A stretch of DNA of 34,072 nt from Chloroflexota bacterium (GTDB lineage: Bacteria > Chloroflexota > Limnocylindria > Limnocylindrales > CSP1-4): assembly GCA_037147135.1 (NCBI GenBank), contig JBAWVU010000002.1, forward strand, positions 1 to 34,072. Direction: 5' to 3'. Shown here one piece after another: positions 2,608 through 30,129 of the stretch (position 1 is its first letter; each line of letters begins with the position of its first letter). The translations under genes and the position numbers were made by a program. The notes beneath the pieces are model-generated. The model was given only the letters and a program-made list of their open reading frames with translations, did not search any database and was not told where the DNA came from.

Positions 2608-3381
2608 TCAGACGGGTGGATCCGCCACGCCGAGCGCGTAGCCACCGTCGACGTCGATGACCGCACCGGTCACCCACCGACCGCCTTCGCCGCACAGCCA
2701 CGCCACCGCCCCGGCGACGTCCATCGCGTCGCCAACCAGCGAGAGCGCCTGCTTCGGGAAGACGGAGCCGGTCGAGAAGCGGGCCCGCTCCTCCTCCTCG
2801 GTGGAGCCGCGCAGCTCCGACGGGACGATCCCGGGCCGGATGACGTTGACGCGGACGCCGTAGCGGCCGAGGTCGACGGCGAGCGCCCGGCTCATCGCCT
2901 CGACCGCGCCCTTGCTCGCCACGTAGCCGAAGCGCCCGCGGGGCGGTCGTGCGACGACGGTCGACCCCAGGTTCACGACGGCGCCGCGGCTCTTCCGCAA
3001 CTCGGGGAGCGCCGCGCGCGTGACGAGGAACACGCTCATGACGTTCGCGCGGAGCATCCACTCGAGGTCGCGCTCGTCGAGGGCGTCGATGGGCGCCTGC
3101 ACCTCGCTGCCGGCGTTGTTGACGAGCGCGTCGATCCCGCCGAACGCGGCAACGGCGGCATCGACGATCGCACAGGCATCGGCATCGACCGTGACGTCGG
3201 CCGGGATCGTGACGATGCGTCCGGGACCCGACGCGAGGTCCGCGGAGAGGCGCTCGAGGCGGTCGGCTCTACGAGCCGCCGCGACGACGTGCGCGCCGCC
3301 TCGGACGAGGTGCCGGACCGTGTGGGCTCCGAGCCCGCTCGACGCCCCTGTCACGATGATCCTCAGGCCTTCGACCGTCAC
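2608..3381 (-). CDS. SDR family oxidoreductase
   Basis: GTG start at 3381 with GGAGGA 6 nt upstream. IIVTGASSGLG (TGxxxGxG), LVNNAGSE (NNAG) and YVASKGAVEA (YxxxK) are present. The longer ORF-track start at 3684 was rejected. The stop lies 6 nt from the stop of the convergent ADH gene. Confidence 0.85.
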   Translation of the reverse strand: MTVEGLRIIVTGASSGLGAHTVRHLVRGGAHVVAAARRADRLERLSADLASGPGRIVTIPADVTVDADACAIVDAAVAAFGGIDALVNNAGSEVQAPIDALDERDLEWMLRANVMSVFLVTRAALPELRKSRGAVVNLGSTVVARPPRGRFGYVASKGAVEAMSRALAVDLGRYGVRVNVIRPGIVPSELRGSTEEEERARFSTGSVFPKQALSLVGDAMDVAGAVAWLCGEGGRWVTGAVIDVDGGYALGVADPPV

Positions 3382-3454
3382 CGCTGCTCCTCCATCGGGC
3401 GCCGCGTCTGCGGCGCGATCGGGCGCCGGGTCGCCGGCGCCGCCCGCTTCCCGG

Positions 3455-5608
3455 TCACGCGCGGCCGGCGGCCACCTCGCCTTCGCGGCTGCGGCCGGCG
3501 AGGACGATGAGGTCCTCGTGGAGCTCGAACCAGGCGCTGTGGAAGCTGTCCACGTCCGGACGCGGCGAGGCGACGTAGCGCCGATCCCCGCCCGCCACGA
3601 GGTCGGCGGCCCGCTGGAGCCGGGCACGGTATGTGGCGAGCCGCGGGAGTCGCCCGGTGAGCGGCGCCAGCCAGGCGTCCGCATCCACGTGCAGGGCGGC
3701 GAGCCCGGCGAGGATCTCGGCGTCGTACGCAGGGTCAGCGTGATCGTTGAGGACCTGCATGCCGTCGACCTCGCGCATCTGCCAGGCGGTGACCGTCTCC
3801 TTCATCCGGTGGTCGAGCACGAGGAACGAGTCGAGCGCGGCAAGGGCCTCGTCGACGCCCCATGCCTCCCGGTCGGCGGCGATGAGCTCGTGCGCCATCG
3901 CCTTGCCGTCCGCCGTCAGGCGGAACTGCCCGGCACCCATCTCCGCGAGGCCATCCGCGACGAGCCGGTCGAGCATGCCCGCCATCTCGTCGGGGGTCGA
4001 CAGGGTCGCCGCCGCGAGGCTCGTCGGGAGGACGAAGCCCTTGATGAACACGGCCCGGAGGACCAGGTCCCGCTCCGCCGGGCCGGCCTCGAGCTCCGCC
4101 CGGTCGGGCGCCTCGGCTGCCGCACCCGCCTCGGGCGCCGCCTTGCCGACCGCGATCCCGAGCTCGCGCGCCCACCCGAGCAGCGTCGCCGCCTCCGGGA
4201 CGACCGTCCGCTCGCCGCCGACGGCTCCCGCGAAGATCTCGCCCGTGCTGCCGTCGATCGTCATCGTCTCGCCGACCGCGATCCGCGTCCCGGCGACGAC
4301 GATCGCGTCGGCCCCGACCTCCACGGCGGCGGCACCCACGACCGCGGGGATCCCCCACCCCCGGGCCACGACGGCCGCATGGCTCGCGAGCCCACCCTTC
4401 GACGTGAGGATCCCGGCCGCCTTCGCCATGCCGTGGACATCGTCCGGAGAGGTCTCGGCCCGGACCAGGATGACCGGCCGACCGGCCTCTGCGACGGCGA
4501 CGGCGGCCTCGGGCGTCGTCGCGACCTCGCCGCAGGCGATGCCGGGCGACGCGGGCAGACCGGACGCGAGCGCCGCGACATCGGTCCGCCGCTCGGTCAC
4601 CACGGTCGGGGGGTCGGCGAGGACCTCCGCGACGCGGAACAGGGCCTCCTCGCGGGTGAGCGGGAACCCCGGCGACTCGGCCATGTCGATGGCGATCCGC
4701 AGTGCGGCGTGCGGGCTGCGCTTCCCGACCCGGCACTGGAGCATCCACAGCTTCCCGTGCTCGATGGTGAACTCGATGTCGCAGAGGTCCCGGTGGTGGC
4801 GCTCCAGGCGCGTCGCGTAGTGGCGGAGCTCGCGCCCCACCTCGGGCATCCGCTCATCCAGGACCGAGATCGGCTCGGTCTGGTGGGTGCCGGCGACGAC
4901 GTCCTCGCCCTGGGCGTTGAACATCACGTCGCCGTACAGGTCGGATTCGCCGGTGGCGGGGTTGCGGGTGAAGAGGACGCCGGTCCCGGAGTCGACGCTG
5001 CGGTTGCCGAAGACCATCGCCTGGACCGTCACCGCCGTCCCGAGGTCGTCGGGGATGCCCTCGCGCTCGCGATACGTGCGCGCCCGGTCGCTGTTCCAGG
5101 AGCGGAAGACCGCCTCGACCGCCGCCCGCAGCTGCGCCCAGGGATCCTCGGGCACGTCCTCGACGCCGACGATGTCGCGGAACATCACGACGAATCGGCG
5201 ACGGCAGTTGGCGGCGAACTTCTCGCTGCCGGAGGAGGCGGCGAGCCCCGCCGTCGTGGCATCCGTGAGCCCGAGGTTGAGGATGGTGTCCATCATCCCG
5301 GGCATCGAGACGGGTGCACCCGACCTGACGCTGACGAGGAGCGGGTCGGCCGGGTCGCCGAATCCCCGGCCAACGAGCCGCTCCATCCGGGCCATGTGCC
5401 CGCGCAGCTCGGCGTCGAGACCGTCCGGCCAGCCGTGAGCGAGGAACTCGTTGCACGCAGCCGTCGTGATCGTGAACGCCGGCGGCACGGGCAGGCCGAG
5501 GTCGACCGCCATGACGGTGAGGTTCGCGGCCTTCCCGCCGACGATCCGCTTGACCTCCGCGAGGGTCAGGCCGTCATGGCGGTCGTCGCAGTCGTAGACG
5601 TATCTCAC
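3455..5608 (-). CDS. PPDK-like protein: ATP-grasp nucleotide-binding domain plus phospho-His swivel domain, with the PEP/pyruvate TIM barrel replaced by an unrelated ~205-aa tail
   Basis: GTG at 5608 with GGAG 7 nt upstream. The N-terminus VRYVYD...VGGKAANLTVM matches the PPDK N-terminal signature, followed by VSVRSGAPVSMPGMMDTILNLGL, FTRNPATGE and CDIEFTIEHGKLWMLQCR. The swivel motif is GGLASHAAVVARGWGIPAVVG with the His at aa 410. After aa ~490 there is no PEP-utilizers_C-like sequence. Confidence 0.8.
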   Translation of the reverse strand: MRYVYDCDDRHDGLTLAEVKRIVGGKAANLTVMAVDLGLPVPPAFTITTAACNEFLAHGWPDGLDAELRGHMARMERLVGRGFGDPADPLLVSVRSGAPVSMPGMMDTILNLGLTDATTAGLAASSGSEKFAANCRRRFVVMFRDIVGVEDVPEDPWAQLRAAVEAVFRSWNSDRARTYREREGIPDDLGTAVTVQAMVFGNRSVDSGTGVLFTRNPATGESDLYGDVMFNAQGEDVVAGTHQTEPISVLDERMPEVGRELRHYATRLERHHRDLCDIEFTIEHGKLWMLQCRVGKRSPHAALRIAIDMAESPGFPLTREEALFRVAEVLADPPTVVTERRTDVAALASGLPASPGIACGEVATTPEAAVAVAEAGRPVILVRAETSPDDVHGMAKAAGILTSKGGLASHAAVVARGWGIPAVVGAAAVEVGADAIVVAGTRIAVGETMTIDGSTGEIFAGAVGGERTVVPEAATLLGWARELGIAVGKAAPEAGAAAEAPDRAELEAGPAERDLVLRAVFIKGFVLPTSLAAATLSTPDEMAGMLDRLVADGLAEMGAGQFRLTADGKAMAHELIAADREAWGVDEALAALDSFLVLDHRMKETVTAWQMREVDGMQVLNDHADPAYDAEILAGLAALHVDADAWLAPLTGRLPRLATYRARLQRAADLVAGGDRRYVASPRPDVDSFHSAWFELHEDLIVLAGRSREGEVAAGRA

Positions 5609-5664
5609 GGAGCGACTCCACTGGAACGCCGATCGGGTGGACCCGCGCCCCGGCGCGGCCGCCG

Positions 5665-6723
5665 TCAGGGCGTGATGATGATCTTGATCGCCCCGCTCGC
5701 GGGGTCGTTGAACGTCGCGAGCGCCTGCCCATACTCGGCGAGCGGGAAGCGATGCGTCATGACCTCGCGCACGCGCATCCGGCCCTGCTCGACGAGCGGC
5801 ATGACGCGCCGCATCTCGCCCGCCGAGGCGCGGCACCCGACCAGCTCCAGCTCGTCGAGGACGAGCTTCTGCATGGCGATCTCGCAGCCCTGGGTCGGGA
5901 TCCCCACCGCGGCACAGCGACCGCCGCGCCGGAGCATGCCGAGCGCCCACTGCACGGTGACCGGGACGCCGGCGCACTCGAGGACGACGTCCGCTCCGAG
6001 ACCGCCCGTCATCTGGCGCACCGTGGCGACCGGGTCACCGGCGCTCGAGTCGACCGTCTCGAAGCCCATCGCCCGCGCCTTCGCGAGACGGAGCTCGTTG
6101 CGCTCGATGAGGATCACGCGCGCCGCGCCACGGATCCGGGCCGCGTCGCCGCCGAGCAGGCCGATCGCGCCGGCGCCGGTGATCACGACCGTGTCGCCCG
6201 GGCTCACGTTGCCGCGGTTCGCCACGTGGAGCGCGATCGACGCGGGGTCGACGACGGCACCTTCGTCGAACGTGAGGCCATCCGGCAGCGCGAAGATCGT
6301 CTTGACGCCATGGACGACGAACGTCGCGTCGGCGCCCTGGACGCTGTGGCCGTACTGCTTGTGGAGCCCCGGCCGCCCATAGTTCTCGCAGAGGTTGTAG
6401 CGGCCCTCGACGCACTTCTGGCAGACGCCGCACGCGTCGTGGGAGGTGCCGGCCACCCGATCGCCCACGTTCCAGCCGTGCAGGTCGGCACCCGGCCCGA
6501 GCGCCGCGATCTCGCCGGCCCATTCGTGACCAGGGATGAACGGGAACGCGGGCGGCCAGAAGCCGGGATAGTCGCCGCGCACCAGGTGCGCGTCCGTCCC
6601 GCAGATCGAGACCGCGCGGACCCGCGCGAGGACCTCGTTCGAGCCGGGCACCGGGATCGGGACCTCCCGGATCTCGAAGCGGTTCGGCTCGAGGACGACG
6701 AGCGCCTCCATGGTCTCAGGCAC
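5665..6723 (-). CDS. Zn-dependent alcohol/polyol dehydrogenase (MDR family), paralog B
   Basis: GTG at 6723 with GGAG 8 nt upstream gives VPETMEALVV..., colinear with MSATMQALVV... of the 1546-2601 protein. The same Zn and Rossmann motifs are present. About four-fifths of residues are identical to paralog A by eye. Confidence 0.9.
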   Translation of the reverse strand: MPETMEALVVLEPNRFEIREVPIPVPGSNEVLARVRAVSICGTDAHLVRGDYPGFWPPAFPFIPGHEWAGEIAALGPGADLHGWNVGDRVAGTSHDACGVCQKCVEGRYNLCENYGRPGLHKQYGHSVQGADATFVVHGVKTIFALPDGLTFDEGAVVDPASIALHVANRGNVSPGDTVVITGAGAIGLLGGDAARIRGAARVILIERNELRLAKARAMGFETVDSSAGDPVATVRQMTGGLGADVVLECAGVPVTVQWALGMLRRGGRCAAVGIPTQGCEIAMQKLVLDELELVGCRASAGEMRRVMPLVEQGRMRVREVMTHRFPLAEYGQALATFNDPASGAIKIIITP

Positions 6724-6761
6724 GGCGTGATCTCCTTCGGGACAGCTGCGGGGGGACCGGC

Positions 6762-7652
6762 TCAGTAGACGGCCACGGGATCGACCATCGACCCGGTGGC
6801 GCCGCGGATCTTCACGGGGAGGGCGACGAAGAGGAACTCGTAGATGCGCGAGCGGGCGAGCTCCTCGAGGTCGAGGCTCTCCATGATGTAGACGCCGTTC
6901 TCGATGAGCAGCGCGGTGTGGACCGGCTGCGGGTTGCCGGTGGGGCCCGGGTCGGGGGCCGGCTGGACCTCGTACGTCTCCGTGTCCGTCCCGCTCGCGA
7001 CGACGCCGCGCTCGAGGAGCCAGCGCGCGGTCGAGACGTCCGGGCCGGGAGTCTTGTGCGCGGCCATCCGCTCGGCGTCCGGCCAGAGGCTCATGTAGCC
7101 GGTCCGGATGACGACGACGTCCCACGGCCCGACGGTCACGCCCTCGGCCGCGCAGATCGCCTCCATCTCGGTCGCGTCGATCGGCGATCCCTTCGGCAGG
7201 CAGTCGACGCCGCGGTGGCCCGCCGCGTCGATGAGGATCCCGCGCGTGAAGAACGGCGGCATCGTCGACGCGTCGAGGTGAGCGGGACCGAAGTCGGTGA
7301 GGTGCTCGTCGGCGTTGCCGCCGCCGTACCAGTGCATGTCGTCGGCGAGGGTCATGTGCGCGAGCGCGTCCATGTGGGCGCCGGAGTGCGACGTGGCCAT
7401 GACGTACTCCGCCATGTACCCGAGGCCCGCGTCGTTGATCGGGCCCCACGGCTGCGCGCCGGTGACGCGGATCCCGCGCGGGGTCCGGTAGTTGAGCACC
7501 TGGAACGGGGGGTGACCCGGGAACAGGGGCATACCCGGGTAGCGGACGGCGGCCATCGAGATCATCCGGCCCTGGCGGACGAGCCCGGCCGCGCGGAGCA
7601 CCTGCTCCGGCGGGAGGGCACCGATGGGACCGATGTCGATCGGCGTGGTCAT
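6762..7652 (-). CDS. Cyclase-family protein (kynurenine formamidase / isatin hydrolase-like metal hydrolase)
   Basis: ATG at 7652 with GGAGG 7 nt upstream. 296 aa. SHSGAHMDALAH fits the HxGTHxDxPxH motif of the putative-cyclase family. Confidence 0.7.
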   Translation of the reverse strand: MTTPIDIGPIGALPPEQVLRAAGLVRQGRMISMAAVRYPGMPLFPGHPPFQVLNYRTPRGIRVTGAQPWGPINDAGLGYMAEYVMATSHSGAHMDALAHMTLADDMHWYGGGNADEHLTDFGPAHLDASTMPPFFTRGILIDAAGHRGVDCLPKGSPIDATEMEAICAAEGVTVGPWDVVVIRTGYMSLWPDAERMAAHKTPGPDVSTARWLLERGVVASGTDTETYEVQPAPDPGPTGNPQPVHTALLIENGVYIMESLDLEELARSRIYEFLFVALPVKIRGATGSMVDPVAVY

Positions 7653-7671
7653 CGCTTCGCCTCCTGGTGGC

Positions 7672-9924
7672 TCATGGCGCCTCCCGATCGCGCTCCTGGA
7701 GCGCCCGCCAGACACGCTCCGGCGTCAGCGGCAGGTCGCGGATGACCGCGCCCGACGCGTCCCGGACCGCAGCGGCGACCGCAGGCGCGACGCAGAGGAG
7801 GGCCCCTTCGCTCATGCCCTTGGACCCGTAGGGGCCGGGCCCGTCCTCGTTCTCGACGATCTCGCTCACGAGCTCGAGAGGCAGGTCCATGCTCGTCGGG
7901 ATCCGGTAGTCGATGGCGCCGAGGTTCCGGATCCGGCCGGTCGCGTCGAAGATGTAGTGCTCCATGAGCGTGTGGCCGAGGCCCATGATCGCGGCACCCT
8001 CATCCTGCATCCGCACCTGGAGCGGGTTGAGCGCCTTCCCGACGTCGGAGACCGTCACGTGGCGCACGAGCGTGACGTCGCCGGTCGCCTCGTCGACCTC
8101 GGCCTCGATGGCAGTGCAGTTGAACTCGAAGAACGCCGGGCTTCCGCCGAGGGGATGGCCGGGCTCGTCCTCCTTGCGCATCTCGCCGTTCCCGATGAGC
8201 TCGCCGCCGAGCTTGCCAAGGCCCGGCTTGAGCACCTCGAGGACGGTGAGCTCGCGGTCCGGCAACCGGACGACGCCGCGATCGACGACGATCGCGTCCG
8301 CCTCGGCGCCGTGGAGCCGGGCCGCCATCGCCCGGAGCTGCGCCTGGATGTCACGGCACGCGCGGAGGACGGCATTGCCCATGAGGACGGTGGACCGACT
8401 GGCCGAGGTCTGCTGGTCGTACGGGACGCTGAAGGTGTCGCCCATGACCACGGTGATCCAGTCGAGCGGCGCCCCCAGCTCCTCGGCCGCGATCTGCGCG
8501 TAGACGGTGCGCGCGCCCTGACCCATGTCGGACGTCCCCGCGTACACGAGGACGCTGCCGTCGCCGAGGAGACGCACCGTGGAGTAGGAGAGTCCGGTCG
8601 TGGGGCCCGACTTGATGCCGAGGGCGATCCCCCGGCCGCGCCCGGGCGGGAGCGGGCTCCCCCACCCGATGAGCTCGGCAGCCCTGCGGATGGTCTGCTC
8701 CCATTCCCCGTCGGCCGGGGTGTCGCCCGGGATGAACGCCTCGCCGTGGCGGGCGAGGTTGCGCAGGCGGATCTCGAGACGGTCGATCCCGAGAGCGCGG
8801 GCGCCCTCGTCGAGATTCGACTCGACGGCCCAGTTCGCCTGCGGGTTCCCGAATCCGCGGAACGCGGTCGATGGCGTCGTGTGGGAGAGGATGGTGCGGG
8901 CGACGATCCGCGCCGCGGGCACGCGGTAGGGCCCGCAGGCGGGATAGCTGCCCTTGCTCACGGCCCGGTCGGCGATGTCCACGTATGCGCCGGCGAGGTA
9001 GTCCGCCGCGATGTCCTGGAAGGCGATCCGCCCATCCGCCTGGAACCCCGTCCGGACGCGCACCTCGGCCGAGGTGCGGCGCACCGCCTGGAACGTCTCC
9101 TCGAGCGAGAGGATGAGGCGTACCGGCCGGCCGGTCCGGAGGGCCATGAAGGTGACGAGCGGCTCGAGCTTGGGGTTCTGCTTTCCGCCGAAGCCGCCGC
9201 CCGGATCGGGCGCGAACACCCGGACCTTCGCGAGCGGGAGGCCGAAGACCGTGGCAAGTGTCCTCTGGAGGAGGTACGGGTGCTGGATCGAGCTCCAGCA
9301 GGCGATCCCGTCGCCATCGGGCGCGGCCATGAAGCCGTGGGGCTCGATCGCGAAGTGGGTGACCATCGGGAACGTGTACGTGTTCTCGACGACGAGATCG
9401 GCCCGGGCCACGTCCACGTCGGCCCAGCCGTACCGGTGCTCGCGGACGATGTTCGTCCCGGCGTTGGGGTCGCCCGGGCGGAGGGCCGGGTCCTGGACGA
9501 GCGGCGCGGCGGGGTCGAGCGCGGCGGCGACCGTGAAGACGGCCGGCAGCTCCTCGTACTCGACCTTCACGAGGCGCGCGGCCTCCTCTGCCGCGTCCTT
9601 CGTGTCGGCGGCGACCGCGGCCACGGGCTCGCCGTGGTATTTCGTCTCGCCGACCGCGAGGACGGGGCGATCCCGGAACTGCGGCCCGAACCGCGGGACG
9701 GGCTGCGGGAGGTCCGCGGCGGTCATGACAAGGCGGACGCCGGGCACCTGCTCGGCCGCGCGCGTGTCGATCGAGATGATCCGGGCGCGGGCACAGTCGA
9801 GCGTGACGAGCTTCGCCTCGAGCACGTTGGGCAGGCGGATATCGGCCACGTACTGCTGGCTGCCGGTGACCCGGCCGACGCCGCCGACGCGGTTGGGGGA
9901 GCCGCCGATCCGATCCGTACTCAT
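7672..9924 (-). CDS. Molybdopterin-binding large subunit of a xanthine dehydrogenase-family hydroxylase
   Basis: 750 aa. GGGFGGK, TAFRGFGNPQ and the C-terminal GPYGSKGMSEGAL (catalytic Glu region) are present. The ATG at 9924 overlaps the upstream stop codon as ATGA. Confidence 0.9.
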   Translation of the reverse strand: MSTDRIGGSPNRVGGVGRVTGSQQYVADIRLPNVLEAKLVTLDCARARIISIDTRAAEQVPGVRLVMTAADLPQPVPRFGPQFRDRPVLAVGETKYHGEPVAAVAADTKDAAEEAARLVKVEYEELPAVFTVAAALDPAAPLVQDPALRPGDPNAGTNIVREHRYGWADVDVARADLVVENTYTFPMVTHFAIEPHGFMAAPDGDGIACWSSIQHPYLLQRTLATVFGLPLAKVRVFAPDPGGGFGGKQNPKLEPLVTFMALRTGRPVRLILSLEETFQAVRRTSAEVRVRTGFQADGRIAFQDIAADYLAGAYVDIADRAVSKGSYPACGPYRVPAARIVARTILSHTTPSTAFRGFGNPQANWAVESNLDEGARALGIDRLEIRLRNLARHGEAFIPGDTPADGEWEQTIRRAAELIGWGSPLPPGRGRGIALGIKSGPTTGLSYSTVRLLGDGSVLVYAGTSDMGQGARTVYAQIAAEELGAPLDWITVVMGDTFSVPYDQQTSASRSTVLMGNAVLRACRDIQAQLRAMAARLHGAEADAIVVDRGVVRLPDRELTVLEVLKPGLGKLGGELIGNGEMRKEDEPGHPLGGSPAFFEFNCTAIEAEVDEATGDVTLVRHVTVSDVGKALNPLQVRMQDEGAAIMGLGHTLMEHYIFDATGRIRNLGAIDYRIPTSMDLPLELVSEIVENEDGPGPYGSKGMSEGALLCVAPAVAAAVRDASGAVIRDLPLTPERVWRALQERDREAP

Positions 9925-10406
9925 CGCCCCGCCCTCTCGGCGGTCGCGAGGACGGCGTCGGTGATCTGCTCGTAGCAGGCACAGCGGCAGAGGTTGCCGG
10001 CAAGGCCCTCGGCGATCTCGGCGACGGTCGGGTGCGGGTTGAGGGCGAGCAGCGCCTGCGCGGACATCACCTGGCCGGGGATGCAGAAGCCGCACTGGAC
10101 GGCGCCCTTGTCGAGGAAGGCCTCCTGCAGCGGGCTCAGGCGACCGTCGGCCGCGAGCCCCTCGATCGTCGCCACGTCGGCGCCGTCGGCTTCGACGGCG
10201 AGCATGAGGCAGGAGTCGACGGAGCGGCCGTCCACGATGACGGTGCATGCGCCGCACTCCCCCACGAGACAGCATTCCTTGGTGCCGGTGAGCTCGAGGT
10301 CTTCGCGCAGGACCTCGAGGAGCGTGCGGTTCGGGGCGACCTCGAACGCGCGCGGGCGCCCGTTCACGGTGACGCGGACAGGGACCGTCTCGATCATCCC
10401 GCTCAT
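9921..10406 (-). CDS. (2Fe-2S)-binding small subunit of the molybdenum hydroxylase
   Basis: CLVGECGACTV, CGFCIPG and CRCACY cysteine clusters are typical of CoxS/XdhC-type small subunits. The ATG at 10406 overlaps the upstream stop as ATGA. An alternative ATG at 10397 lies 9 nt after GGAAGG. Confidence 0.9.
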   Translation of the reverse strand: MSGMIETVPVRVTVNGRPRAFEVAPNRTLLEVLREDLELTGTKECCLVGECGACTVIVDGRSVDSCLMLAVEADGADVATIEGLAADGRLSPLQEAFLDKGAVQCGFCIPGQVMSAQALLALNPHPTVAEIAEGLAGNLCRCACYEQITDAVLATAERAGR

Positions 10407-11263
10407 CCTTCCGCCAGCCGGTCGATCGCCGTCCGCAGCGCGCGTGCGCCGAGGACGCGCAGCATCGCGAGGCGGTACTCGGGGCTCGCCCGCATCGACC
10501 GGGGCGACGGACTCGCGTCGGCGAACATCCGCTCGAAGATCGCCGCCCGGGCCCCGTCCGACGCGGTCGGGTCCGCGAGCACGCCGCTCTCGTCGACGGC
10601 GAGGACGGGCCGCGGCCCCACGCTGCCGTAGGCGATCCGGGTCACGCCGGCCTCGTCGACGGAGCACGCCAGCGTGACGGACGCGAGGTCGTGGCCGCGA
10701 CGGCGCGTCCGGCGGGTATGGACCGAGCCCGCCCGCCGGGTGGGCAGGGGCAGCTCGACCGCCGTGACGATCTCGTCCTGCGCGAGGGTCGTGACCCCGG
10801 AGCGCACGAAGAAGTCCGTCATCGAGATGCGCCGGGTGCCGCCCGGCCCGGCCGCGACGACCTCCGCCCCATACACGAGGAGCGACGGCGCGGTGTCCGC
10901 GGCGGGCGACGCGTTGCAGACGTTCCCCGCCAGCGTGGCCCGGTTCCGGATCTGCACCGAGCCGACGACCGCGGCCGCCTCCGCGAGCGCGGGGAAGTAG
11001 CGTCGCACCCGCTCGTCGGCTGCGATGTCCGTCATGACGGTCGTGGCCCCGACGGCAAGGCGCCCGCGCTCCTCGCGGATCGCCGGGCCGAGCTCTGCGA
11101 TCCGCTTCACGTCGATGACGACGGCCGGACGGACCGTCCCATCGCGCAACCGGATGACCAGGTCCGTTCCCCCGGCGAGGAGCCGGGCATCGAGTCCGTG
11201 CGTCGCGAGCAGTGCCACCGCCTCGGCCAGCGTCGCCGGCCGCGCGTAGGCGAAGGTGTGCAT
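10403..11263 (-). CDS. FAD-binding medium subunit of the molybdenum hydroxylase
   Basis: 286 aa. MHTFAYARPATLAEA...LLAGGTDLVIRL is typical of the CoxM/XdhB FAD-binding domain. GGGGGAAG lies upstream of the ATG at 11263. Confidence 0.85.
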   Translation of the reverse strand: MHTFAYARPATLAEAVALLATHGLDARLLAGGTDLVIRLRDGTVRPAVVIDVKRIAELGPAIREERGRLAVGATTVMTDIAADERVRRYFPALAEAAAVVGSVQIRNRATLAGNVCNASPAADTAPSLLVYGAEVVAAGPGGTRRISMTDFFVRSGVTTLAQDEIVTAVELPLPTRRAGSVHTRRTRRRGHDLASVTLACSVDEAGVTRIAYGSVGPRPVLAVDESGVLADPTASDGARAAIFERMFADASPSPRSMRASPEYRLAMLRVLGARALRTAIDRLAEG

Positions 11264-11284
11264 CGTTCGTTCTTCCCCCGAGCC

Positions 11285-12172
11285 TCAGACGACCTTGTCC
11301 ACCTCGTCCAGCAGCACCTGCGGGGTGGCCGCCCGGATGAAGAAGAACGGCCGCTCGCAGAACCGGTTCACGAAGTCCGCCCGCCTGGCTCGCAGCACGT
11401 CGTTGTCGACCATCGGCATCACGAAGCCCGGCGCCAGCAGCTCGTTCGTCAGCAGGTAGTTCTGCAGCGAGTGGAGGAACTGGAACTGGCGTTCGAACGG
11501 GATCAGCTCGTTCGCGGCCGGGTCGAAGTTGCCGTCGATCGCCGGGACGATGACGAGGTCGATGTTCGGCGTCCCCTCGTAGAACCCCCAGGACGGCATC
11601 GCGCCCCAGAACTTCTCGACGCCCTTGTTGGGGGCGGCTTTGTCGGAGCGCTCGGTGCCCTCGGTGCGCTTGCGCAGGAAGGTATCCACGGAGCCCATGA
11701 CGGCGCGCCCGTCATCGCTGATGACCGTAGTCTCGGACGCGACCTGGAGCCCGCCGCGGCGGCCGGCCTCGATGAGGCCCATGGACTTGCCGTGGTTCGA
11801 CTCGCCCCCGAGGAACAGCATCGTCTTGCCGCGGTAGTTCACGGCAGCGCTGTGGGACGGGTGCAGGCCGGCTTCCTCCATCCGGAGGGAGAGCATCGCC
11901 ACGACGACCTTCTGGATCGGGCCGGCCGGCCAGGGGCCGGTGAACGTCATGACACGACCGTCGTAGGAGATCGCCTTGTCGCCGCCCTGGCGCCACACGA
12001 TGTCCGGCTGGTCCAGCGTGACCTCCGGCGAGATCCGGACGTCGGCGAGCCTGTAGTTGAGGAAGTCCAAGTCCTCGAGCACATGCTCGCGGGGCTCGGT
12101 GCCGTAGACATCCACGCGCAGGCGCGCCATCCCCGCCGACATCTCCTCGGACAGTCGTAGCTGGTCGTTCAT
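11285..12172 (-). CDS. Hypothetical P-loop protein with an HPr kinase/phosphorylase C-terminal-like core
   Basis: 295 aa. LHPSHSAAVNYRGKTMLFLGGESNHGKSMGLIEAGRRGGLQVASETTVISDDG resembles the HprK-type block (Walker A G-x4-GKS, then L..L...G..LVaDD). The rest of the protein shows no motif I recognise. Confidence 0.5.
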   Translation of the reverse strand: MNDQLRLSEEMSAGMARLRVDVYGTEPREHVLEDLDFLNYRLADVRISPEVTLDQPDIVWRQGGDKAISYDGRVMTFTGPWPAGPIQKVVVAMLSLRMEEAGLHPSHSAAVNYRGKTMLFLGGESNHGKSMGLIEAGRRGGLQVASETTVISDDGRAVMGSVDTFLRKRTEGTERSDKAAPNKGVEKFWGAMPSWGFYEGTPNIDLVIVPAIDGNFDPAANELIPFERQFQFLHSLQNYLLTNELLAPGFVMPMVDNDVLRARRADFVNRFCERPFFFIRAATPQVLLDEVDKVV

Positions 12173-12217: not shown

Positions 12218-12895
12218 TCAGGCGATCGGTTGAGCGTCGGCCGCCGTCCAGAGGATGTCGAGCATCTCCGCGGCGGTCGCGAAGTGGCGGCGCAGGGCGT
12301 CGGCCGCCAGCTCCGGGTCACGGCGCCGGAGCGCCTCGAGCACCGGGACGTGGAGGTCGGCGATCCTCAGCCGGTCCGCTCCCGGCACGGCAAGGCTGAT
12401 GTAGGTCCTCGAGAACGGCTCGAGGTGCCGCCACACCCGTTCGAGGGTGGCGTTGCCGGTCACCTCGACGATCCGGCTGTGGAAGCGCGCGTCGGCCGTG
12501 GCCTCCGTGTGGGCGTCTCCGACGCGGGCGGCCTGCCTCATGTCGCGGACGCAGCGGCCGAGCTCGTCGAGGTCGGCCTCGGTCAGCTGCGAGATCGCGA
12601 GCCGGGCACCCAGAGCCTCGAGCTCCGATCGGACGCCGAACGCCTCGAGGAGCTCGGCCGCCGACGGGCGGCGGACGCGGGCTCCCCGGAACGCGGTCGT
12701 CTCCACGACGCCGATGGCCTCGAGGTCACGGAGCGCCTCCCGCACCGGCGCCTGGCTCGTGCCGAACTCCCGGGCCACCCGGGTCTCGACGATCCTGGCG
12801 CCGGGCGGATAGCGGCCGTCAAGGATCGCCTGGAGGAGGCGATCCTTGACCTGGTCGCTCAGGACACTGCGCGAGATCGCTGTGCCGTCCGACAT
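12218..12895 (-). CDS. GntR family transcriptional regulator, FadR subfamily (FCD effector domain), copy 1
   Basis: 225 aa. The N-terminal winged helix-turn-helix is RIVETRVAREFGTSQAPVREALRDLEAIGVVE. The helical C-terminal domain contains DARFHSRIVEVTGNATL, an FCD-type His motif. Confidence 0.9.
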   Translation of the reverse strand: MSDGTAISRSVLSDQVKDRLLQAILDGRYPPGARIVETRVAREFGTSQAPVREALRDLEAIGVVETTAFRGARVRRPSAAELLEAFGVRSELEALGARLAISQLTEADLDELGRCVRDMRQAARVGDAHTEATADARFHSRIVEVTGNATLERVWRHLEPFSRTYISLAVPGADRLRIADLHVPVLEALRRRDPELAADALRRHFATAAEMLDILWTAADAQPIA

Positions 12896-12906
12896 CGTGG
12901 TGTGGC

Positions 12907-14679
12907 TCAGGACCCGATCCCGATGGTCGGGCGGACCGTCTCGGTGCTGAGGATCTCGACCACGCCGGCGTTGCCGTCGACGCGGATGCGCTGGCCGGTG
13001 TGAATCACGTAGGTGCCGATCGACGTGCCGACCACCGCGGGGATCCCGTACTCGCGGGCGAGGACGGCCGGGTGAGCGACGACGTCGCCGGCGTTCGTCA
13101 CGACCGCGGCGATCTTGCCGTAGAGGACCTGCCAGGCCGGGTTCGTCATCTCGCACACCAGGATCTCGCCCTGGCGCACGAGGTCGAACTCGTCCGTGGA
13201 GGTGACGACGCGCGCCACGCCCTCGACGACGCCGGGCGATCCGGCGATACCGGCGAGCTTCCCGTCCTTCAGCTCCCGCGGGCGGTCGAACTTGTCCGGG
13301 AAGCCCCAGAGGTTGAGGTAGGGGAACGCGAGCTGCGTCGCGGTGGCCGTGCCCACCCAGTCCTTGGGCCGGATGCCGTCCGCCGCGGCGCGCTTGGCGC
13401 GCGCGGCCGCGACGATCGCCCGCCCTGTTGTGGCGTCCGGTGCACCGATGAACTCGCGCAGGGCGTTGTAGCGGAAGTAGATGACGTCGTCCGGCTGGTC
13501 CAGAACGCCCATCGCGACGAGCTTCTCGCCGAGGGCGATGAGGACGAGGCGGACGTGGGCGTTGGCGCCCTGGTCGATGTAGAAGTGATGGTCCGGGGTG
13601 AGCGGCGCCATCTTGAGGTTGATCTCGTTGGCGGCCCGCATCTCCTCGAGCGCCTCGCCGGAGAGCCCCTCGAGGATCTCCACCGCGGCGGCATCGATGT
13701 CGGCCTTGAGGGCGGCGACCTTCGTCGGGTAGTCGTAGTCCGACGCGTACTGGTCGCGAACGAGCTGGACGACCGGGACCATGTCCTCGCGGAAGCTCGG
13801 GTAGATGAACTCGTGGCTCCAGACCGCGTGCCAGCCGAACTCCTTCTGGTACGGGACCACTCGCTCGTCGATGAACCGGCGGCCGCGTTCGGTGGCCTGG
13901 AGGGCCGGGACGATGTCCGTCGCGGCCGCGTGGTCGAAGGCCGCGGAGAGGACCGGGTCCGCCTTGACCTCTTCCTTCATCTCCCAGAGGGCCTCGATCT
14001 TGTCCCAGTTGCGGTCGCTGGCCGAGTTCTGCAGCCGGCCGAGGAGGACCTGGTTCACCTCCCCATGGGTCTTCTTCATGACCGCCTGGAGGTTGAGCGT
14101 CGCGCTGAGCTGCGCGAAGTTCAGCATCCAGTGGATCTTCCAGTGGCGGTCGTGCATGTCGATGGCGTCCTCGAGGAGGACCGCCACCTCGGCGAGGCTC
14201 AGCTGGTCCTTCTGGTCCAGCATCGACTCGATGTAGTCGAAGTTGCGCTGCATCTCCGGCACGAACCGGGTGCGCCACCAGTAGGTGAAGTTGGTCCCGT
14301 AGACGGGCAGCACCGCGCCGAGGTACGCACCGATCTTCGCGGCGTAGTCTGCGTCCTCGGGGACGATCGCCTGCGTCTCGTAGTTGTATTCCTGTGTCGC
14401 GACGTGGAGGCCGGCCTCGGCCGGGATCGCGGTCGTGTACAGGTAGCCGTTGATCTTCTTGTAGATCCAGTCCGTCGCGAAGGGCGTGCCGAAGCGGCGG
14501 AACATGTGGTCGCACGAGAGCCACCAGCCGCCGATGTCCTCGTACATCGGGCTGAGCGGCTTGGGGCAGTGCAGGTCGTCGAAGACCCAGAAGAGGAGCT
14601 TCTCGTTCTCCGAGGCCCACTCGATCGGGAACGATCCGTCCCCGAGGAATGCGCCGAGGACTTCTTCCTTGAGCGGCAC
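12907..14679 (-). CDS. Atypical PEP-utilising enzyme: ~470-aa N-terminal domain of unknown function plus C-terminal phospho-His swivel domain, with no ATP-grasp
   Basis: GTG at 14679 with GGAGG 6 nt upstream. 590 aa. The C-terminus is GIAGSPGVVEGVARVV...ILVCEMTNPAW...VVTNAGDVVAHPAVLAREYGIPAVVG, a PEP-utilizers mobile domain with the His at aa 536. The N-terminus (FWVFDDLHCPKPLSPM...) lacks any GGKxxNL/ATP-grasp signature. Confidence 0.75.
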   Translation of the reverse strand: MPLKEEVLGAFLGDGSFPIEWASENEKLLFWVFDDLHCPKPLSPMYEDIGGWWLSCDHMFRRFGTPFATDWIYKKINGYLYTTAIPAEAGLHVATQEYNYETQAIVPEDADYAAKIGAYLGAVLPVYGTNFTYWWRTRFVPEMQRNFDYIESMLDQKDQLSLAEVAVLLEDAIDMHDRHWKIHWMLNFAQLSATLNLQAVMKKTHGEVNQVLLGRLQNSASDRNWDKIEALWEMKEEVKADPVLSAAFDHAAATDIVPALQATERGRRFIDERVVPYQKEFGWHAVWSHEFIYPSFREDMVPVVQLVRDQYASDYDYPTKVAALKADIDAAAVEILEGLSGEALEEMRAANEINLKMAPLTPDHHFYIDQGANAHVRLVLIALGEKLVAMGVLDQPDDVIYFRYNALREFIGAPDATTGRAIVAAARAKRAAADGIRPKDWVGTATATQLAFPYLNLWGFPDKFDRPRELKDGKLAGIAGSPGVVEGVARVVTSTDEFDLVRQGEILVCEMTNPAWQVLYGKIAAVVTNAGDVVAHPAVLAREYGIPAVVGTSIGTYVIHTGQRIRVDGNAGVVEILSTETVRPTIGIGS

Positions 14680-14737
14680 GTGGATCCTCCTGTGCGGTGT
14701 GCGACCCGGGGCGGACTCGCCGGCCCGGGACTGGTCG

Positions 14738-14956
14738 TCAGCCCGCGGCTGCTTGGTGGCGGGTGATCCGCCTGAAGCGCCGCATGTTCTCGGTGGGCGC
14801 GATCTCCGTCGGGAGACCCTCCATGCTCGACGCCCCGAAGAAGCCGGCCACACCCGTCGTGTGGTAGCTGACGTACCGGGCGTCCTCCGGCTCCGCGATC
14901 GGGCCGCCGTCGGCAACCGTCCCGCGCAGGCGCTCCAGCGCCTCGCCTCGGTTCAT
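14738..14956 (-). pseudogene. Remnant of a PEP-hydrolase-like TIM-barrel gene (partner of UPF0261/Tm-1) with a large in-frame internal deletion
   Basis: 72 codons. MNRGEALERLRGTVADG looks like the family N-terminus. It is fused directly to GPIAEPEDARYVSYHTTGVAGFFGASSMEGLPTE...FRRI, which looks like the family C-terminus (HGGPIA.PEDA..V...T.GV.GFyGASSMERLP). Family members are about 275-285 aa from memory. The ATG at 14956 overlaps the UPF0261 stop as ATGA. Confidence 0.55.
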
Positions 14957-16203
14957 GTGGGTCCCCCCGGGCTCACCCCCTTCGCCGCGGCCCACCGGCG
15001 GTACAGGTCGTCGAGCCGCTCCGCCATCGCACGCGCGAACGCTGGATCGTTGATGTCGGTGGCCATCTCGACCACTTCGACCTCGGGCCGGAGGCCGGCC
15101 TTCAGCTCACGGATGAGGGCCGCGTCCGCGACCGGGTCGTGGAACGGGGCACCGGGGACGTCGATCATCGAGACGCCGCCGAGCGGGATGAACACGGCCA
15201 GGGGCCCCGTCGCCGCGTTGAGCTTGCGGGCGATGATCCGCCCCAGCTCCGCGCACTCCGCCTCGGTCGTCCGAACGAGCGTGATCGTCGCGTTGTGGAC
15301 GTAGAGATCGCGGTCCCTGAACTGCGGCGGGACGGTCTCGAGGGGCCCGAAGTCCACCATGTCGAGCGCGCCGAGCGAGACGACCTGCGGGATCCCGAGT
15401 GAGCCGGCCATCTCGAGCCGGTCCGGCCCGGCCGAGTGGATCCCGCCCACGAGCGCGTCCGCGAGCTCGGTCGTCGTGACGTCCAGCGACCCGGTGATGA
15501 AGCCCGCCGCCATGAGCGCTTCCATCGCTCTCCCGCCGGAGCCGGTGGCATGGAAGACGAGGACCTCGTATCCCCTCTCCTCGAGGATGTCCCGGGCCGC
15601 CGTGACGCAGGGGGTCGTGACCCCGAACATCGTGGCCCCGATGAGGGGCTTCGGCGAGAGCTGCGACACGAACGACGCAGCGGCCTTCGCCATCCCGGCG
15701 ATCCCCGCCGCAGCGTTCGTGAGGATCCTCTCCGAGAGGCCGTTGATCCCGGCGATGTCGACGACCGAGTACATCATCGCGATGTCCGTGGTGCCGACGT
15801 ACGGCCGCGTTTCACCGGAGGCCATCGTCGAGACGAGGAGCTTCGGCACGCCCACGGGCAGCGCCTGCATCGCCGCCGAGACGATCGACGAGCCGCCGGA
15901 TCCGCCGAGGCCGAGGATCCCGTCGAGCCGGCCCTCGTCGTGGAGGCGCCTGACGATCACTGTCGCGCCGCGTGCCATCGCCAGGACCGCCGGCCCGCGG
16001 TCGCCGGCCGCCGCGAGGGCCGCCCTGCTTTCCCCCGCGGCCGCGGCGACTTCGTCGGCGCCTATGTCGCCGGGCGAGGGATCGCTGAGCACCCCAGCGT
16101 CGACGAGGATCACGTCGCAGCCGAGCCCACGAACGCGGTCGCGCAGGAACTCGTACTCTGCACCCTTCGTGTCGAGGGTACCGAGCAGCACCACGCTGGC
16201 CAC
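14953..16203 (-). CDS. UPF0261 family (Tm-1 N-terminal-like, putative nucleotide-binding) protein
   Basis: GTG at 16203 with GAGGGG 6 nt upstream. 416 aa. The N-terminus VASVVLLGTLDTKGAEYEFLRDRV...VILVD is characteristic of UPF0261. Confidence 0.75.
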   Translation of the reverse strand: MASVVLLGTLDTKGAEYEFLRDRVRGLGCDVILVDAGVLSDPSPGDIGADEVAAAAGESRAALAAAGDRGPAVLAMARGATVIVRRLHDEGRLDGILGLGGSGGSSIVSAAMQALPVGVPKLLVSTMASGETRPYVGTTDIAMMYSVVDIAGINGLSERILTNAAAGIAGMAKAAASFVSQLSPKPLIGATMFGVTTPCVTAARDILEERGYEVLVFHATGSGGRAMEALMAAGFITGSLDVTTTELADALVGGIHSAGPDRLEMAGSLGIPQVVSLGALDMVDFGPLETVPPQFRDRDLYVHNATITLVRTTEAECAELGRIIARKLNAATGPLAVFIPLGGVSMIDVPGAPFHDPVADAALIRELKAGLRPEVEVVEMATDINDPAFARAMAERLDDLYRRWAAAKGVSPGGPT

Positions 16204-20484: not shown

Positions 20485-20513
20485 TTGACCATCTCGCTTC
20501 GGCGGCGTATCGT
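20485..20513 (+). promoter_or_regulatory. Candidate sigma-A-type promoter for the cupin-transketolase unit
   Basis: TTGACC (20485-20490), an exact 17-nt spacer, then TATCGT (20508-20513; TANNNT). Operator copy 3 begins at the last base of the -10 hexamer. Confidence 0.5.
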
Positions 20514-20529
20514 CGATAATCGATTGTTC
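20513..20529. promoter_or_regulatory. Operator-like motif copy 3 (TCGATAATCGATTGTTC)
   Basis: It shares TCGATAATCGATTGT with copy 1 and lies 54 nt upstream of the cupin start codon. Confidence 0.6.
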
Positions 20530-20582
20530 TGGACGAGAACGGCCCGCCGCACCCGACGGCAGCCGGCCCGGGAGGTACGTGG

Positions 20583-20951
20583 ATGATCAAGCGTGTCGCG
20601 CGCGCCGAGGCGGAGGTCGTGCCGCTGCCCGGCCGGACCTGGTATTCGTACTTCGGGCCGCACAACAGCGGCGCGAAGAACGTCTCGCTCGGCGTGTCGA
20701 TCTTCCCCGCGGGCTCGAGGCCGTCGGGGCACGTGCACCCCGCCGAGGAGGAGACCATCTACTGCGCCGCCGGGCGGGGCCGCATCGTCACGCCCGACGA
20801 GATCGCCGAGGTCGAGCCGGGCGTCGTCGTCCACGTCTCCCCCGGGACCTTCCACGCCACCGAGGCCGACGGGCCCGAGCCGCTCGAGCTCATCTGCGTG
20901 TTCTCGCCTCCGGTGGTCTCCGGGTCGTACGAGAAGAAGGGCGGGTCATGA
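20583..20951 (+). CDS. Cupin domain protein (possible sugar or sugar-phosphate isomerase)
   Basis: 122 aa. GGGAGG lies 7 nt upstream. GHVHPAEEETIYCAAGRG...VHVSPGTFHA fits the two-motif cupin_2 pattern (G(x)5HxH...E, then PxGxxHxxxN-like). Confidence 0.75.
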   Translation: MIKRVARAEAEVVPLPGRTWYSYFGPHNSGAKNVSLGVSIFPAGSRPSGHVHPAEEETIYCAAGRGRIVTPDEIAEVEPGVVVHVSPGTFHATEADGPEPLELICVFSPPVVSGSYEKKGGS

Positions 20952-21847
20952 GCGAGCCTTCCGCGACCGCCGGCATCGATGCCGTCGAGATCGCCCGCCT
21001 CGAAGAGGTCGCGCGGCGGATCCGCGTCGAGGTCATCCGAGCCGTGAACCACGCGAGGGCCGGCCACCTCGGCGGCCCACTGTCCGCGGCAGACATCCTC
21101 GCCGTCCTCTACTTCCACGTCATGCGCATCCGCCCGGACGAGCCGCGATGGCCCGACCGCGACCGGTTCGTCCTCAGCAAGGGCCATTCATCGATCGGCC
21201 TCTACGCAGCGATGGCGCTCCGCGGGTACTTCCCCGTCGAGGAGCTCTCGACGTTCGACGCCGCGCACTCCCGGCTCCAGGGCCACCCCGACATGACGCG
21301 GCTGCCGGGCCTCGACATGTCGAGCGGGTCGCTCGGGATGGGGATCTCGGCGGCGATGGGGATGGCCCTCGGCGCGCGCCTCACCGGGCGTGACAGCCGT
21401 GCGTACGTGATGCTCGGCGACGGCGAGTGCCAGGAGGGCGAGGTCTGGGAGGCGGCCATGTCGGCCGAGCGGTACGGCCTGGACAACCTCATCGCGATTG
21501 TCGACCACAACAGGCTCCAGCAATACGGCTGGCCCGGAGAGGGCCCGGACGGTCGCACGCCGCCCCAGATCCCCGGCGAGCTGGTCGCCAAGTGGACCGC
21601 CTTCGGATGGCGCGTGCTCGAGGTGGACGGCCACGACATCGCCGCGGTGGTCTCCACGCTGCAGGAGGCCGCGCGCGGCGACGGCCGCCCGGTCGTCGTC
21701 ATCGCCCACACCGTCAAGGGCAAGGGCGTCTCGTACATGGAGGGCCACTACTTCTGGCACACGCGCGCGCTCAAGCCGGACGAGTTCGCGATCGCGATGG
21801 CGGACCTTGGCGAGCCGGTCCCAGCGACCGAAGGAGACGGGCGATGA
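20948..21847 (+). CDS. Transketolase N-terminal (thiamine diphosphate-binding) subunit
   Basis: 299 aa. AGHLGGPLSAADIL, SKGHSSIGLYA and MLGDGECQEGEVWEA (the GDG-x-E ThDP motif) are present. The ATG overlaps the cupin stop as ATGA. Confidence 0.9.
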   Translation: MSEPSATAGIDAVEIARLEEVARRIRVEVIRAVNHARAGHLGGPLSAADILAVLYFHVMRIRPDEPRWPDRDRFVLSKGHSSIGLYAAMALRGYFPVEELSTFDAAHSRLQGHPDMTRLPGLDMSSGSLGMGISAAMGMALGARLTGRDSRAYVMLGDGECQEGEVWEAAMSAERYGLDNLIAIVDHNRLQQYGWPGEGPDGRTPPQIPGELVAKWTAFGWRVLEVDGHDIAAVVSTLQEAARGDGRPVVVIAHTVKGKGVSYMEGHYFWHTRALKPDEFAIAMADLGEPVPATEGDGR

Positions 21848-22791: not shown

Positions 22792-22804
22792 CGGGCGCCG
22801 ATCG
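22743..22804 (+). repeat. Direct repeat copy 1 (last 49 nt of the transketolase C-subunit gene including its stop, plus 13 nt downstream)
   Basis: The 62 nt align without gaps to 29174-29235, with 3 mismatches at 22747, 22752 and 22781. Confidence 0.85.
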
Positions 22805-22835
22805 TCACGGAGCCACGCCTCCACCGTCACCGCGG

Positions 22836-22865
22836 GGCGGGAGAGCCCGGCCGGGCTCTCCCGCC
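22836..22865. terminator. Bidirectional hairpin between convergent genes
   Basis: A perfect 13-bp stem, GGCGGGAGAGCCC / GGGCTCTCCCGCC, with a 4-nt GGCC loop. It sits between the transketolase stop (22791) and the DMT stop (22940). There is no U-tract. Confidence 0.5.
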
Positions 22866-22939
22866 TGGGCCGGATGCGCCGCAAGCCGCGGGCCAAGGCC
22901 GGCCGGGCCCACCACGTCCGCCCCCGCTGAGAACGGGCG

Positions 22940-25111: not shown

Positions 25112-25115
25112 GGAC

Positions 25116-27547: not shown

Positions 27548-27590
27548 CGGCCCACGCTTCTGGGCACGACACCGAAGGAGGAGACACGCA

Positions 27591-29960: not shown

Positions 29961-30129
29961 CAGGATCCCTCTCGACGGAGGGGGCCGACACGACGTCCGG
30001 ATGCTCCGTCGACCGAAGCGCTCCCGGGCCCCCTCGCGTCGCGGCACGAACTCGCCGGAAGGGCAGGTCCAGTGGCGACCGCGGCGCTGTCTCCGTCAGT
30101 CTAGCGCGCGGCTCGGCCCGCGCCGGGCA

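Follow-up and report, generated by a model that had tools for sequence, protein, structure and literature searches.

The protein of 717 residues encoded on the minus strand at positions 3455 to 5608 of a 34,072-nucleotide stretch of the Chloroflexota contig JBAWVU010000002.1 (referred to as a whole as the window) is probably a natural fusion of a VadK-type kinase with a partner protein of the Rv1126c family, in which the C-terminal tail serves as a docking or regulatory module. VadK is the name given to Rv1127c of Mycobacterium tuberculosis, formerly 'PpdK', in a 2025 preprint and a 2026 EMBO Reports paper (PMC13400623), and Rv1126c is described there as its 'operonic partner'. The domain composition of the window protein, its intact catalytic residues, the independent and confidently folded tail, and the pattern of fusion and fission among its relatives come directly from sequence or structure prediction. 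Autophosphorylation on the swivel histidine and tight association between VadK and Rv1126c were established by experiment in the M. tuberculosis homologue only, and by analogy would be expected of the window protein.

Kinase half and family assignment

The N-terminal part of the protein retains the catalytic apparatus of pyruvate phosphate dikinase (PPDK). An ATP-grasp or nucleotide-binding region (PPDK_N, PF01326, E 4e-47) covers approximately residues 1 to 340 (4589 to 5608, minus strand, the boundary being approximate) and includes the motif VSVRSGA at residues 92 to 98 with the conserved ATP-binding Arg95. A swivel, or PEP-utilizers mobile domain (PF00391, E 9e-22), occupies residues 378 to 456 (4241 to 4477, minus strand), and its catalytic His410 is encoded by codon 4379–4381 inside the motif GGLASHAAVVARGWG (residues 405 to 419), where alanine replaces the regulatory threonine of the PPDK T-S-H motif to give A-S-H. 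An earlier note on this DNA had recognized the ATP-grasp and phosphohistidine swivel as well as this substitution, and both assignments are confirmed. The alignment to the canonical PPDK model TIGR01828 stops at residue 483, which corresponds to position 526 of 865 in the model, and TLLGWARELGIAVG (residues 475 to 488; 4145 to 4186, minus strand) is therefore taken to be the retained linker helix that in PPDK leads into the phosphoenolpyruvate (PEP)/pyruvate TIM barrel, as the same note had proposed in describing a short vestige of that linker. This helix is conserved in fused relatives (alignment columns 121–140), and it is followed by a low-complexity linker, rich in Ala/Pro/Glu and of varying length (approximately residues 489 to 512; 4073 to 4144, minus strand) that is unconserved and interrupted by many gaps in the alignment of fused relatives.

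The barrel itself is missing, as had been claimed: Pfam gives no match to PEP-utilizers_C anywhere in the 717-residue protein, even at E<=1, and the topology of the tail predicted by AlphaFold2 (AF2) likewise rules out a divergent barrel. The score against TIGR01828 is 535.8 bits, below the cut-off of 843.45. The missing barrel and a score under the cut-off exclude identity as a PPDK, and, judged by its sequence, the protein cannot interconvert pyruvate and PEP, in agreement with the earlier view that it is not a conventional PPDK. Compared with the canonical enzymes of Clostridium symbiosum and maize, then, the window protein shares ATP-grasp, swivel and linker over approximately its first 483 residues (model positions 1 to 526) and differs in lacking the acceptor barrel, in the alanine at the regulatory position and in a score far below the cut-off. 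Models for Rph, PigC, RedH and PEP synthase match at 56–131 bits against cut-offs of 598–1350, and the protein is not an RPH/PigC-type enzyme because its domain order differs.

The curated model that does fit is NF004531 (PRK05878), which covers truncated actinobacterial proteins named "pyruvate, phosphate dikinase" and to which M. tuberculosis Rv1127c belongs. Residues 20 to 464 reach 508.9 bits, above its cut-off of 456; model positions 461–534 are unmatched, and the linker and 205-residue module stand there instead. Over its first 470 residues the window protein shares 44% identity (E 1e-93) with the M. basiliense VadK orthologue (LR130759.1); its His410 and Arg95 align with the catalytic histidine and ATP-binding arginine of that protein, and GGLASHAAVVARGWG aligns with its GGASSHAAVVSRELG. 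The M. basiliense orthologue carries AVFASWHSP and GGASSHAAVVSRELG, both of which agree with peptides that published M. tuberculosis primers encode, and the A-S-H form of the swivel motif is common to the window protein and to VadK as read from the M. tuberculosis primer sequence GAASHAAVVSRELG. By curated score and catalytic residues the window protein thus qualifies as a putative member of the VadK/PRK05878 family.

Published work on VadK describes a protein with no PEP/pyruvate domain and no PPDK flux that autophosphorylates on His422 with ATP and Mg, has Arg106 as an ATP-binding residue, and is required for growth on propionate or cholesterol and for virulence (PMC13400623). This activity fits the option in the earlier note of an ATP-driven phosphohistidine donor, which by analogy would apply here. 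The two proteins share their derivation from PPDK, the ATP-grasp and swivel histidine, and the missing barrel. They differ in length, 717 residues against 490, as VadK ends approximately 70 residues past its swivel; in the partner, which is in cis here and a separate gene in M. tuberculosis; and in location, the window gene lying in a molybdenum-hydroxylase/dehydrogenase operon whereas the VadK gene lies beside prpR-prpDC.

The fused tail and its stand-alone relatives

The tail (residues 511 to 717, nucleotides 3458–4078, approximately 205 amino acids, with LRAVFIKGF beginning at residue 517) has no match in Pfam or NCBIfam. AF2 modeling from a 32-sequence alignment gave a pLDDT of 96.2 and a pTM of 0.91, with three helices and a beta wing (tail residues 3–54) followed by long helices and one beta hairpin. 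By AF2 and Foldseek the winged-helix subdomain spans residues 513 to 583 (tail residues 3–73; 3860 to 4072, minus strand). When the whole tail was compared with the PDB by Foldseek only its first 63–85 residues were matched, to MarR-family winged helices, at an rmsd of 1.3–2.1 Å over approximately 65 residues (63–72 in individual matches) with probability 1.0 and E values of only 0.02–0.1. A profile search of PDB sequences found MarR (3cdh, E 1.3e-3) and MntR/DtxR (E approximately 0.01–0.02) and nothing for the helical-bundle region. The earlier claim that a MarR-like winged helix opens the tail is thereby supported by both the predicted helix-helix-helix-wing order and the structural matches.

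The remainder, residues 584 to 717 (3458 to 3859, minus strand), is a strongly conserved helical bundle with a beta hairpin that AF2 predicts with equal confidence when modeled alone (pLDDT 96.9). Foldseek against the PDB returned nothing better than E 0.19 for the bundle alone, the matches being generic helical bundles (OspC/Vsp) at E>=0.19 and rmsd 6–7 Å, and the helical region is as difficult to place as the earlier note had found it. Likeness to HD-domain, HPt or DinB-like folds was considered and is absent from the Foldseek and PDB match lists. Conservation across the family alignments is uneven, with approximately 5 positions in the winged helix against more than 25 in the bundle. Invariant or nearly invariant bundle residues are W609, Q610, N621, D622, H623, D625, Y628, D629, R656, Y660 and R663 and, towards the C-terminal end of the protein (AAGRA), D687, S688, H690, W693, F694, E695 and H697. 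Such conservation makes the His/Asp/Arg-rich surface of the bundle the likely working site.

The tail family is large and lacks both a curated model and a solved structure. Searching with the tail brought up 731 proteins, and a profile search of 1.84 billion cluster representatives recovered at least 1,832 at E<=1e-3, with 409 at E<=1e-30. The best 150 of these 1,832 fall into two length groups, stand-alone proteins of approximately 200–210 residues and fused proteins of approximately 700–800, and in the long ones the tail match is C-terminal. We collected 95 loci with tail homologues, 80 of them chosen as the closest relatives of the window tail, which biases the set towards the fused clade. 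A homologue of the window kinase part lies within the flanks of approximately 6–10 kb in 93 of the 95. The survey of the architecture's spread that the earlier note had called for thus found an uninterrupted fusion in the same order as in the window at 70 of the 95 loci, one of them in the complete genome of Nocardia sp. CA-084685. A further nine are apparent fusions broken by frameshifts in long-read metagenome-assembled genomes (MAGs), and 13 of the 93 are genuine splits.

The genuine splits take several forms. A 203-residue tail gene lies 22 nucleotides upstream of a 505-residue truncated PPDK gene in Streptomyces sp. JNUCC 63 (L086), a 201-residue tail gene overlaps the start of a 488-residue truncated PPDK gene in Mycolicibacterium sp. 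XJ1819 (L093), and the pair sits on opposite strands in Nocardioides albidus (L080). Eight loci, from four Mycobacterium/Mycolicibacterium proteins, carry a unit of truncated PPDK, GntR/FCD regulator, acyl-CoA dehydrogenase and tail. Stand-alone tail genes are therefore real in cultured actinomycetes; the stand-alone tails of approximately 200 residues on the long-read MAG contigs L001 and L002, in contrast, were rejected as broken gene calls. The fused gene is split by apparent frameshifts at L001, L002, L015, L049, L059, L070, L073, L076 and L077, and public gene calls at these MAG loci list spurious stand-alone tails and PPDK_N fragments. Labels are also unreliable, with JGI tail-only fragments named 'pyruvate, orthophosphate dikinase' and genuine NCBI stand-alone proteins named 'MarR family transcriptional regulator'. 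Since kinase part and tail occur both fused and split, the pattern provides strong evidence, at the level of sequence, that they form one functional unit.

The integrity of the window gene itself is supported by its coding signal. The open reading frame (ORF; 717 codons and a stop) starts with GTG at 5608, with GGAG just upstream, and G+C content at third codon positions (GC3) stays at 0.85–1.00 in a single frame from 5608 to 3455, spanning the junction and the tail. By the same measure the stop-to-stop extension of the frame up to 5977 is non-coding, and at approximately 5610–5660 the signal shifts to the frame used by the Zn-dependent alcohol dehydrogenase gene upstream; the related protein P0126 starts at an equivalent M-x-Y-V-Y. 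There is next to no chance that this architecture arose artefactually, through a frameshift, a chimeric assembly or the decay of a PPDK pseudogene, or that it conceals a divergent TIM barrel. The broken ORFs in several related long-read MAG loci, such as L001 and L002, would favor such an explanation, but it is already refuted by the continuous frame across the junction, by the 70 intact fused orthologues including the one in a complete Nocardia genome, by the lack of a PEP-utilizers_C match, and by an all-alpha tail with a wing and no barrel topology at pLDDT 96. Neither the frameshift or assembly error nor the complete divergent barrel that the earlier note had raised was found.

The connection of the tail to Rv1126c comes from gene order and alignment. 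In M. basiliense (locus L094) the 201-residue protein P0479 is encoded by a gene that overlaps the stop codon of the VadK orthologue by 4 nucleotides, and it is followed by a convergent gene of 411 residues and an alpha/beta-hydrolase gene, the counterparts of Rv1125 and ephC. The published RNA-seq table for M. tuberculosis gives the order Rv1124 (ephC, epoxide hydrolase), Rv1125, Rv1126c, Rv1127c (PMC13400623). The two orders match, so that by position P0479 is the orthologue of Rv1126c. Its alignment with the window tail runs end to end, with 38% identity over 204 residues (E 3e-32), and the motifs WQ, NDHxD, DSYH and WFELHE are common to the window tail and the stand-alone proteins of approximately 200 residues. 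The actinobacterial homologues of that size, annotated as hypothetical or 'MarR family', correspond to residues 511 to 717 over their full length, as by its position Rv1126c would, and differ in that the window module is covalently joined to a kinase. On this comparison the tail is best described as the fused form of a widespread partner protein, the putative Rv1126c family, and not as a peculiarity of the window gene. An exact scan of genome contigs with the core of the published rv1127c qPCR primer gave no match, and M. tuberculosis was not in the top 120 matches of two tail-homologue searches. Rv1126c raises the solubility of VadK, and washes with 2 M NaCl are needed to part the two (PMC13400623), which points to a physical complex. 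The searchable literature, the VadK paper (PMC13400623) included, yielded no discussion of Rv1126c function or of fused forms.

Proposed mechanism and competing explanations

The window protein is most likely an ATP-driven phosphohistidine protein in which the swivel acts on the fused module or together with it. The ATP-grasp domain would bind Mg-ATP and phosphorylate His410 on the swivel, a step that is experimental in the M. tuberculosis homologue. Tethered by the retained PPDK linker helix and the flexible Ala/Pro-rich linker, the swivel would then dock on the C-terminal module that stands in place of the lost TIM barrel. The module would act as an obligate partner, offering a docking, regulatory or acceptor site that sets where the phosphoryl group or a phospho-dependent interaction goes. 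Its conserved His/Asp/Arg surface would be the functional site, as an acceptor, as a sensor of ligands or as a surface for docking, and the winged helix would serve protein contacts and not DNA binding. In this organism the system would serve the molybdenum-hydroxylase catabolic operon and not the methylcitrate cycle.

Several points weigh against this account. The role of the tail is deduced from conservation, position and co-purification, and the tail could be merely a solubility or dimerisation scaffold. Its assignment to the Rv1126c family was made through the positional orthologue in a related species. The published model of VadK action is binding to PrpC and PrpD, both of which co-immunoprecipitate with it, and Rv1126c is not required in that model (PMC13400623); no citrate-synthase or PrpD-family match was found among the scanned ORFs of the window.

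A further protein bears on how the phosphoryl group might be used. A 669-residue protein encoded approximately 7 kb upstream of the fused kinase (12907 to 14916, minus strand), next to a UPF0261 (PRK02399) gene at 14953–16203 (minus strand), is PRK08296/Rph-like with a C-terminal swivel (PEP-utilizers, residues 581–651) and no ATP-grasp domain by Pfam; models for PRK08296, RedH and Rph match it below their cut-offs. A homologue directly adjoins the tail–VadK pair at L093, and in two proteins, P0203 (1049 residues) and P0243 (1256 residues, locus L096), a homologue is fused ahead of VadK and tail. P0243 is a triple fusion of Rph_4th and swivel, PPDK_N and swivel, and tail, and its N-terminal half is homologous to the 669-residue window protein (E 1e-20). 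The triple fusions adjoin genes for ring-hydroxylating oxygenase, P450 and amidohydrolase. These associations suggest that the phosphotransfer system may include the 669-residue protein as a third component, its three modules occurring split, fused in pairs or triply fused in different bacteria.

Rifampin phosphotransferase, PigC/RedH and phenylphosphate synthase follow a logic in which an ATP-grasp domain charges a swivel histidine that then visits a lineage-specific second site, and proteins with the Rph_4th and swivel arrangement adjoin or are fused to VadK–tail systems. The rifampin phosphotransferase-type enzymes, however, have the swivel at the C-terminus, behind a central substrate domain, whereas the window swivel is central, and the acceptor fold is different. 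The shared chemistry lends some weight to a small-molecule dikinase, in which the C-terminal module, possibly together with the 669-residue Rph-like protein, would be the acceptor domain and phosphorylated His410 would phosphorylate a catabolic intermediate of the surrounding operon. The tail sits exactly where PPDK has its second active site; the conserved polar set of NDHxD, DSYH, WFELHE and two arginines suggests a ligand, metal or phosphate site; the gene lies inside a catabolic operon, with homologues of the molybdenum-cofactor (MoCo) subunit beside the tail gene in 60 of the 95 loci; and the triple fusions lie beside catabolic-type genes. Against it, Foldseek recognized no substrate-binding fold in the PDB, a winged helix is unusual within a catalytic domain, and VadK, the sole characterized relative, appears to act on proteins and not on a metabolite (PMC13400623). 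We regard such a dikinase as unlikely. Much the same limited credence is given to an extended scheme in which the winged-helix/bundle module would be the missing second active site of a hitherto unrecognized multi-component phosphotransfer system made up of a VadK-type ATP-grasp/swivel protein, an Rph_4th-type swivel protein and an Rv1126c-type module. The phosphoryl group of His410 would there pass to an invariant histidine or a metal site of the bundle (H623, H690, H697), or by way of the bundle to the second swivel protein, and from there to a catabolic intermediate or enzyme.

A phosphorylation-controlled transcription factor, in which the winged helix would bind DNA and the kinase half would switch it according to ATP or metabolite status, was an option in the earlier note and is now disfavored as quite improbable. 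Its attraction lies in the MarR-type fold of the first approximately 70 tail residues and in the MarR-regulator label that NCBI gives to many stand-alone members. Yet Pfam winged helix-turn-helix matches all fall under the gathering threshold in relatives (17 bits against 27) and no MarR or MarR_2 match exists for the window tail. The flanking N- and C-terminal helices by which MarR regulators dimerise are not seen in the predicted model of the tail, and an unrelated conserved bundle follows the winged helix. The winged helix carries a net charge of −4 in the window protein and of −2.2 on average in 63 family members; the equivalent of the recognition helix is also acidic (−2 here, family mean −1.8) and the wing is −1 here. 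Such acidity, together with much weaker conservation than in the bundle, makes DNA binding by the winged helix unlikely. In addition, dedicated GntR/FCD or TetR regulators are already present at these loci, and loss of VadK leaves transcription of the methylcitrate genes in M. tuberculosis unchanged (PMC13400623).

Genomic setting and wider meaning

The probable fusion of a VadK-type kinase with its partner lies in the window within a same-strand gene string that is a probable operon by Pfam scans (2608 to 12172, minus strand). The order is a 295-residue protein, the FAD, 2Fe-2S and MoCo subunits of a hydroxylase of the xanthine-dehydrogenase family, a cyclase (PF04199), a Zn-dependent alcohol dehydrogenase, the fused kinase and a short-chain dehydrogenase/reductase (SDR); beyond the string are a metallo-beta-lactamase-fold gene and a second Zn-dependent alcohol dehydrogenase. 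The gene order at L001 is the same, and the closest loci come from MAGs of soil "Chloroflexia"/Limnocylindrales whose neighboring proteins are 80–90% identical to those of the window, a likeness that by itself points to a Chloroflexota bacterium as the probable source. An inverted duplication of approximately 1.07 kb (1528–2597 on the plus strand, 5669–6741 on the minus strand, 83–85% nucleotide identity) brackets the kinase–SDR pair; its two copies encode paralogues of Zn-dependent alcohol dehydrogenase with 81% identity to each other. The 295-residue ORF that opens the operon (11285–12172, minus strand) has a clear coding signal and a P-loop-like GGESNHGKS motif, and no match was found for it in Pfam, NCBIfam or the PDB, the best being PEP carboxykinase at E 0.76. 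At 26 of the 95 related loci, homologues of this protein adjoin the tail gene; kinship with the DUF7065 protein of L093 was considered and no relation was found.

Regulators, phosphatases and transporters recur around these systems. The window has two GntR/FCD regulators (12218–12910 and 29253–30047, both minus strand), and in the mycobacterial four-gene units (within loci L083–L092) a GntR/FCD gene lies between truncated PPDK and tail, which suggests that GntR/FCD proteins may be the recurrent regulator of these systems. Phosphatase genes adjoin VadK–tail systems in Nocardia (L082, 6569–7366), in a MAG (L002, 5591–6451) and in Streptomyces (L086, 316–1086 and 9183–9839); the families are Y_phosphatase3 and, in Streptomyces, His_Phos_1, and these neighbors could be the dephosphorylating counterpart. 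The only phosphatase-type counterpart in the window is a Cof-type HAD hydrolase at 31339–32136. A complete ABC uptake operon of the branched-chain-amino-acid type lies at 24233–29030 (plus strand), with two BPD_transp_2 permeases, two ATPases and a Peripla_BP_6 protein, and a similar operon lies upstream of the VadK–tail gene in L002. In the region 20500–23050, flanked by genes for a luciferase-like monooxygenase and an EamA transporter, ORFs at 20579–20951 (plus strand), 20759–21187, 21188–21760 and 21748–23031 (all minus strand) show coding-like GC3 and have no Pfam match.

An ATP-grasp domain and swivel without the barrel is a known kind of protein, represented by VadK. Not described before in the searchable literature are the covalent union with the partner, the size and breadth of the partner family, and the tie to catabolic operons other than the methylcitrate cycle. 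VadK has been presented as a histidine kinase derived from PPDK that is essential for the virulence of M. tuberculosis and a candidate drug target, in work that treats Rv1126c merely as an aid to co-expression (PMC13400623). The fusion, dominant in Chloroflexota and Acidimicrobiia and present in Nocardia, is classic Rosetta-stone evidence for one functional unit, and it suggests that the partner is an integral third module of VadK-type kinases. Its compact, highly conserved and structurally unassigned helical domain is the place to seek the output or input of the kinase. Mis-annotation is widespread, the kinase part being labelled 'pyruvate, phosphate dikinase' and the partner 'MarR family regulator', and VadK-type kinases are not restricted to pathogenic mycobacteria or to the methylcitrate cycle but form a broad family on diverse catabolic operons. 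If the multi-component phosphotransfer scheme should prove true, VadK of M. tuberculosis would not be understandable without Rv1126c.

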